NCBI GenBank assembly: GCA_951406725.2
Contig: OX597839.1
Coordinates: 39,618,001 to 39,682,000 of the forward strand
DNA length: 64,000 bases
Direction of reading: 5' to 3'
Source of the DNA: Octopus vulgaris
Lineage: Eukaryota
In this document: positions 20,549 through 21,014 of the stretch, in pieces
How the letters are laid out: each line of letters begins with the position of its first letter
Numbering within the stretch: the stretch's first letter is position 1
Position numbers and translations under genes: made by a program
Notes under the pieces: model-generated
The model's input: the letters and a program-made list of their open reading frames with translations, nothing else
Database searches by the model: none
What the model was told of the DNA's origin: nothing

Positions 20549-20577
20549 CGGAGGAAATAGAGGGAAACGTTACTCAC

Positions 20578-20833
20578 CTTGGTCTTCGAGAAGGACAGGT
20601 AGTCTGGATTCTTTTACAAGAGAATGTCCCTTAAAATGCCTTTCTAATAGAGCTTTGTCCGTTAGTTTTCTGAAAATCCCAACACTTGGCAAGAAGTTGT
20701 CAAAGAGTGTTTGATAATTACGTCTCCTGATGTTTCTATTAATAATTTTGTCTTCGAGTATTTTATGGATGGATTTCTCTAAGTGATCCCCGTTTTTGAA
20801 AATGGAGTGAAAATCGTTAAACACGTCACTTAC
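20578..20833 (-). CDS. Candidate internal exon of an unidentified host gene (256 nt, phase 0 to phase 1); also a candidate recursive-splicing exon
   Basis: Minus strand reads a long (CT)n pyrimidine tract, TTTGCAG|GTAAGTGACG..., and ends ...GACCAAG|GTGAGT. One frame is open for 85 codons (VSDVFNDFHSIFKNGDHLEK...PVLLEDQ) in non-repetitive AT-rich DNA; the other two frames stop at once. I do not recognise the protein. Confidence 0.55.
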
Positions 20834-21014
20834 CTGCAAAGAGAGAAAGAGAGAGAGAGAGAGAAAAAAAATGAAAAGACAGTGATAAATGCTGTGATGT
20901 CAAGTTGACACCTGTTAAAGTATTATGATTAATGAATAATACGATGATCAGTCATATGATATCTAACACAAGTAACCTGAAAGGAATTTAGAGGTGGATA
21001 GAAGAGAGATACAA

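Follow-up and report, generated by a model that had tools for sequence, protein, structure and literature searches.

The closest described counterparts of the locus reported here are the ratchet points of Drosophila, which are accompanied by cryptic RS-exons in Ubx, kuz, Bx and luna according to the available parts of two reports (PMC8605326; 10.1101/006163). The same portions give TT at −5/−6 in 196 of 197 fly ratchet points (10.1101/006163) and a cryptic exon of about 50 nt (PMC8605326). For vertebrate RS-exons (Sibley 2015, as summarized in the accessible sections of PMC8605326 and PMC8911335), a rebuilt donor that competes with the donor of the exon itself, a premature stop on inclusion and a long first intron are described. 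A review, in its accessible part, records recursive splicing from flies as well as from mice and humans (PMC13149111).

Comparison of these systems with a site in Octopus vulgaris revealed several shared features. Like the fly ratchet points, as far as the accessible text describes them, the octopus site is a fused acceptor and donor in sense orientation within a very long intron that holds several such sites, with TT at −5/−6 and an out-of-frame cryptic exon; the donor peak at 30–89 nt in the octopus class as a whole is close to the fly exon of ~50 nt. The octopus intron is longer (295 kb, in segments of 56, 66, 26 and 146 kb, versus fly segments of 2.6–64 kb), and the exon differs in measuring 256 nt, in having a strong LINE-derived donor and in being seen as a circle. 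Fly sites were defined by junction reads, lariats, saw-tooth coverage and conservation, whereas the octopus site is known from sequence and assembled contigs. On this comparison it likely works like a Drosophila ratchet point with a cryptic exon, and we treat it as a candidate member of that group. The expected donor competition, the premature stop on inclusion and the long first intron are also found in the partial accounts of vertebrate RS-exons, from which the octopus case differs in coming from a mollusc, in its repeat-derived exon and in its circular product.

The window, that is, the whole 64,000-nt stretch of DNA that was analysed, carries the site on its minus strand. An unbroken 34-nt pyrimidine run (20871–20838, T8 and then (CT)n-like) is followed by G, CAG (20836–20834) and GTAAGT (20833–20828), which places a strong acceptor directly against a consensus donor and makes the fused CAG|GTAAGT (20828–20836) a candidate ratchet point at 20833. 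The acceptor reads TTGCAG, with TT at −5/−6, and the closest upstream AG lies at −60, the intervening stretch being AG-free. A second donor, AAG (20580–20578) followed by GTGAGT (20577–20572), closes a 256-nt exon (20833–20578) that is present in a single copy in the genome assembly and whose frame 0 is open across 85 codons. A sequence-only reading had described this arrangement (a tract of more than 30 nt, CAG|GTAAGT, and AAG|GTGAGT 256 nt on), and each element is confirmed in the sequence; the open frame that it reported is likewise present, but derives from the end of a LINE ORF1. When up to one mismatch was allowed, Y10-N-YAG-GTAAGT matched the window only at 20833 and matched none of 100 shuffled windows; genome-wide controls are the fairer test, because shuffling destroys microsatellites.

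The host gene was located by a splice-site exon scan of 1.26 Mb, which revealed exons on the minus strand that encode a cysteine-rich repeat, a membrane segment and a piece resembling a death domain (Pfam scores weak and below the cut-off). These exons match the octopus records LOC106871338 and LOC115224692, and one member of the cluster is named TNFR-Cys domain-containing protein; the host is a TNF-receptor-like gene. The N-terminus of isoform X2 is identical at 18 of 18 residues at C26:39694710, a signal-peptide-like first coding exon, and exon 1 terminates in CAG before GTAGGT. A contig from RNA run X1 connects exon 1 to an exon at C26:39399668, and therefore a minus-strand intron of 294,988 nt (C26:39694656–39399669) contains the whole window (1–64,000), with the first and the next coding exon both outside it. 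The giant intron postulated from the sequence is thus real and is bridged by RNA, and the motif stands on its sense strand, 55.8 kb in. Pfam analysis of 293 open frames within ±400 kb (290 selected among 1,487 candidates and 3 further ones) gave no host-gene match and mainly transposon families.

Further fused sites were found in the same intron, two of them co-oriented at C26:39572518 and 39546060 (minus strand), 66 and 93 kb downstream; a third site, at window position 6914, is weak. Relaxing the motif to 12 or more pyrimidines out of 16 gives four sites on the sense strand of the intron versus one on the antisense strand, and one in 839 kb outside the gene, both strands included.

Other features of this intron were noted in passing. 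A 65-nt cassette exon (C26:39550942–39550878, minus strand, CAG|GGAGAC ... GAG|GTAAGC) is spliced to exon 1 in run X9, which carries a different organism label; the X1 contig that joins exons 1 and 2 begins 30 nt before a branch, which this cassette exon explains equally well. Alternative first exons (L040:7717, L039:6453 and L038 near 9313, all minus strand) match annotated isoform N-termini that lack a signal-peptide-like start, and a 932-codon open frame lies at L020:7186–9981 (plus strand), 150 kb from the ratchet-point site.

RNA contigs from four runs of a single study (X1–X4) were examined over window positions 20250–21040; X1–X5 are presumed RNA runs, analysed as assembled contigs. Each of the four runs contains one 286-nt contig on the exon, a length of 256 + 30. 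The X3 contig covers 20633–20831 and continues with 20576–20662, the X4 contig covers 20797–20576 and continues with 20831–20768, and the X1 and X2 contigs cover 20834–20567 with three other letters and 17 loose end letters. These loose letters are exon bases 12–28, and the 11 X1/X2 bases that seemingly enter the intron are exon bases 1–11, which account for two differences from the intron. The third difference, T>A (plus strand) at 20603, is common to all four contigs and is probably an allele relative to the assembly. The circle was read from the tables of contig pieces and loose ends, the automated joint table having shown no joint; given the length of 256 + 30 and the overlapping ends, the contigs are consistent with a closed 256-nt unit put together by an assembler that uses 31-letter words. 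Run X1 represents spliced RNA, as its other contig connects exon 1 across 295 kb to the next coding exon.

The contig joint lies within AG|GT and connects the donor at 20578 to the acceptor at 20833, both canonical. A canonical donor joined to its upstream acceptor, the junction by which exonic circRNAs are recognized, is thus found in four of four runs of one study, and the joined exon is very probably a back-spliced exonic circular RNA, which would make both of its splice sites functional. Minus-strand splicing at 20833 and 20578, on which the sequence-only reading depended, is supported by RNA contigs that join both sites. No contig leaves the exon through its donor, and the flanking intron has no cover in X1–X4, contigs being prone to drop rare variants. 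Inclusion of the 256-nt exon in linear mRNA was likewise not seen among the contigs, which cannot show absence. An exon 1-to-20833 junction was absent from the five contig records on exon 1 in four runs, a set from which some records drop out, and X5 has no contig on exon 1. The X1 and X2 contigs start at the acceptor AG, which hints at a second entry into the exon; this is ambiguous because the unspliced intron and exon 1 each end in CAG. Rolling-circle translation was considered and rejected, as the circle contains no ATG and has 13 stops in three turns.

Circle-predominant unannotated exons of human cells (PMC5052039) and octopus circRNAs (PMC9699675), in the parts of these reports available, resemble this case in consisting of a single exon with a canonical AG/GT joint, perhaps in having flanking inverted repeats, a frequent though not obligatory feature of exonic circRNAs, and in involving an exon that is missing from gene models. 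Because the octopus exon begins with a consensus donor, the joint of its circle is itself a donor motif, unlike those of known exonic circRNAs. The flanking repeats are a SINE-like copy 355 nt downstream of the donor (19857–20222, minus strand) and a 384-nt partner that is 87% identical and lies 7.6 kb upstream of the acceptor (28453–28834, plus strand), and these arms could pair across the exon. The score of the near-arm pair was reached at 6% of 119 control positions, and an equal or better inverted pair within 10 kb was found at 29% of them, so that the arrangement is only modestly unusual.

Most of the exon and the intron downstream of it consist of a dispersed repeat with 40 scored matches. 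Copies of this repeat contain an ORF1 end followed, in the same orientation, by frames that resemble an endonuclease and a reverse transcriptase. A profile of eight other copies matches 20789–20283 (envelope 20802–20263, E 1.2e-89), which delimits a decayed LINE fragment on the minus strand with the ORF1 end and the start of the ORF2 endonuclease; Pfam gave no match for the window's own 77-aa LINE piece. The fragment is single, intronic and ~70% identical to other copies, and the acceptor and the first 31–44 exon bases lie outside it. GTGAGT stands at the equivalent place in 13 of 15 other aligned copies, overlapping the ORF1 stop, a figure that is biased upward because the query included the donor. 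Judged by these alignments, the decayed LINE supplied both the exon donor (20572–20580) and the open frame. The open frame, as an ORF1-end remnant, gives no sign of a host coding exon, and its peptide is 31–38% identical to copies L002 and L095. A host coding exon was also rejected on the grounds of no Pfam family, a genome self match only and absence from gene models; no relative was found among 134 candidates, which is weak evidence.

Two further observations concern the repeat itself. In the LINE family (L002, L091–L104), AG|GTG overlaps the ORF1 stop in 15 of 15 aligned copies, mostly as AAG|GTGAGT, and a perfect 15-nt tandem duplication lies within the ORF2 start of the fragment (window 20489–20518). 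Exonized retroelements, and back-spliced retrotransposon RNA in maize (PMC7010299), similarly owe a splice signal and most of the exon to a retroelement; the octopus fragment differs in being decayed, single, intronic and transcribed within a host intron.

Analysis of the whole genome revealed 97 sites that match Y16-N-YAG-GTAAGT (exact counts). The CAG version accounts for 49, versus 1 for the reversed control, and the TAG version for 48, versus 19; the AAG and GAG versions have 9 together, the control hexamers GTAAAT, GTAACT and GTAATT (GTAAHT) 36 together, and the GAAAGT and GCAAGT controls 3 each. The possibility that the whole class is one repeat family was rejected, except for five TAG sites and one duplicate; after removal of these six repeat-borne sites (the five-member TAG family and one of the two duplicated sites), 91 sites were left. 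The repeat family that carries Y16-N-TAG-GTAAGT comprises L206, L208, L225, L254 and L260, which are 76–85% identical.

Among the 91 sites there are nine same-strand and no opposite-strand neighbour pairs within 300 kb, at distances of 67–269 kb. The null distribution has a mean of 0.78 same-strand pairs and never reached nine in 20,000 draws, and 51 control sites form no same-strand pair. The site pairs are candidates for other giant introns. They lie at C3:9.64/9.75 Mb, C6:97.12/97.26, C8:15.10/15.24, C13:4.55/4.69, C13:57.42/57.57, C18:39.83/39.97, C20:68.16/68.36, C23:40.19/40.45 and C24:7.52/7.59.

The class also carries TT at −5/−6 in 77 of 90 sites versus 13 of 30 controls. A cryptic donor at +30..89 was found in 44 of 90 class sites, compared with ~12% for the remaining bins and 3/30 among controls, with a donor-scoring matrix that was set by hand and a bin that was picked after the first 30 loci had been seen; loci fetched after that choice gave 29 of 60, and a literal-motif count gave 49 of 90, no other bin exceeding 24. 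Strong donors within 400 nt show no enrichment (5/30 class sites versus 6/30 controls) and were rejected as a class feature. Open frames of at least 60 codons follow 12 of 96 class sites versus 10 of 30 controls, and a minority of the class may therefore be ordinary exons. Taken as a class, these sites are in our judgement highly likely to include genuine ratchet points of the octopus genome.

The site at 20833 is atypical of this class in its (CT)n tract and its long exon. Tracts of this type occur at 5 of 90 class sites, one of which has a short cryptic donor, and the 256-nt exon exceeds the class mode of 30–89 nt. No donor scoring at least 0 lies between +10 and +255 of 20833, and the sites at 39572518 and 39546060 have no donor scoring at least 1 within 400 nt. 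Recursive use of 20833 is in our judgement probable.

A mechanism is proposed in which the 256-nt cryptic exon is back-spliced to a circRNA while its first six bases act as the donor of a ratchet point through which the intron is removed in steps, a combination that we consider somewhat favoured. In one path, the CAG-ended exon 1 would be spliced to the 20833 acceptor 55.8 kb downstream, which would rebuild CAG|GTAAGT; this donor (9.3 on the hand-set matrix) would then beat the exon's own AAG|GTGAGT (8.1), in line with the competition between donors that is modelled for flies. Splicing would proceed through the co-oriented sites 66 and 93 kb downstream, and the lariat of the segment C26:39638833 to 39572518 would begin GTAAGTGACG. 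With onward splicing from the rebuilt donor, the exon would leave no trace in the mRNA. In the other path, which some transcripts may take, the exon's own donor would first join back to the acceptor and yield the circle. Both paths consume the same acceptor and would therefore compete. Linear inclusion of the exon would terminate translation 39 nt inside the following exon.

The LINE fragment starts 31–44 nt after the acceptor, at the distance at which members of the class mostly carry a weak cryptic donor, and would have brought a strong donor at +256, lengthening the exon enough for it to circularize well. Longer single exons tend to circularize more readily. The flanking inverted repeats may assist circle formation. 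The site may have come first and the LINE later.

Three other explanations of the exon and its contigs were weighed. The closed contig could reflect an artefact of template switching by the reverse transcriptase, of assembly, of head-to-tail exon repetition in linear RNA or of a tandem duplication in the sequenced animals. The exon ends are indeed alike (AG|GT and 9 of the 11 following bases), which could favour template switching, and the evidence comprises RNA contigs of a single study; against this, four runs share an identical 256-nt closed unit, joined within AG|GT at canonical sites, and the exon is single-copy in the assembly, which together render an artefact very improbable. An excised intron segment between two ratchet points, closed end to end, is equally hard to credit. 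The piece would read GTAAGT...AAG before GTGAGT, as such a segment should, and a contig would look the same under either chemistry, but AAG is a poor acceptor that lacks a long pyrimidine tract and has another AG 6–7 nt upstream, Y16-N-RAG-GTAAGT is not enriched genome-wide (9 matches), and the strong acceptor stands at the other end. Least probable of all is an ordinary alternative exon of linear mRNA, whether coding or acting as a poison exon to tune the isoform with the signal peptide: both splice sites are strong and the open frame 0 continues the phase of exon 1, yet the frame is the LINE ORF1 remnant with no protein relative found, none of the nine named proteins of the gene's cluster carries the exon at its N-terminus, and inclusion creates a stop in the next exon.

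The remaining explanation accepts the circle and denies the ratchet: a microsatellite acceptor and a LINE donor would by chance form a cryptic exon that is back-spliced as a by-product, GTAAGT being incidental and no ratcheting taking place here. The atypical (CT)n tract (5/90) and the inherited donor agree with this, as do the 3 to ~12 chance or ordinary sites that each control hexamer yields, the frequency of circle-predominant unannotated exons in human cells, as stated in the available part of PMC5052039, and the lack of a linear junction among the contigs on exon 1. However, strict sites are mostly above the control rate (49 versus 3 to ~12), the intron contains two further sites of like orientation, and an acceptor able to work in back-splicing 56 kb after a CAG-ended exon would rebuild a consensus donor each time that exon 1 arrived there. 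We regard a chance exon as unlikely, though a good deal less so than the three explanations above, and prefer the combined ratchet and circle.

A remark in the sequence-only reading that such splicing is uncharacterized in cephalopods agrees with the literature searched, in which no report of cephalopod recursive splicing was found. In its available text, PMC8797185 mentions recursive splicing and cephalopod once each. The published set of 296 octopus circRNAs kept only those with joints at known splice sites, according to the portion of PMC9699675 available, and an unannotated exon would therefore be dropped by this filter; the word 'recursive' is absent from the main text of that paper as available, and LOC115224692 was not found in the text of its supplements, of which the large data archive is possibly fuller. 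The literature searched, which included few subscription papers, contained no case of an RS-exon that persists in circular form, and none is described in the accessible parts of PMC8911335, PMC13149111, PMC8758631 or 10.1101/159350. The accessible part of PMC8911335 does suggest that multistep splicing might contribute to the circular transcripts of one gene.

RNA at 20833 and 20578 indicates that the acceptor and the donor of the cryptic exon are both recognized. A broader reading, which we offer tentatively and consider rather doubtful as a whole, is that octopus giant introns are removed via fly-type ratchet points at 100 sites or more, that a LINE made one cryptic exon into a stable circle, and that the balance of back-splicing and ratcheting determines how much of the signal-peptide isoform a TNF-receptor-like gene produces. 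If this is true, such circles would form a durable record of recursive splice sites. The built-in AG|GTG donor of the LINE family could seed cryptic exons elsewhere, and a mollusc genome with several fly hallmarks at ~90 sites offers a list that can be tested at once on total-RNA data already in existence. If the finding is general, the case would illustrate the reshaping of a ratchet point by a retroelement, and circles would provide a stable read-out of splicing intermediates that are normally short-lived.
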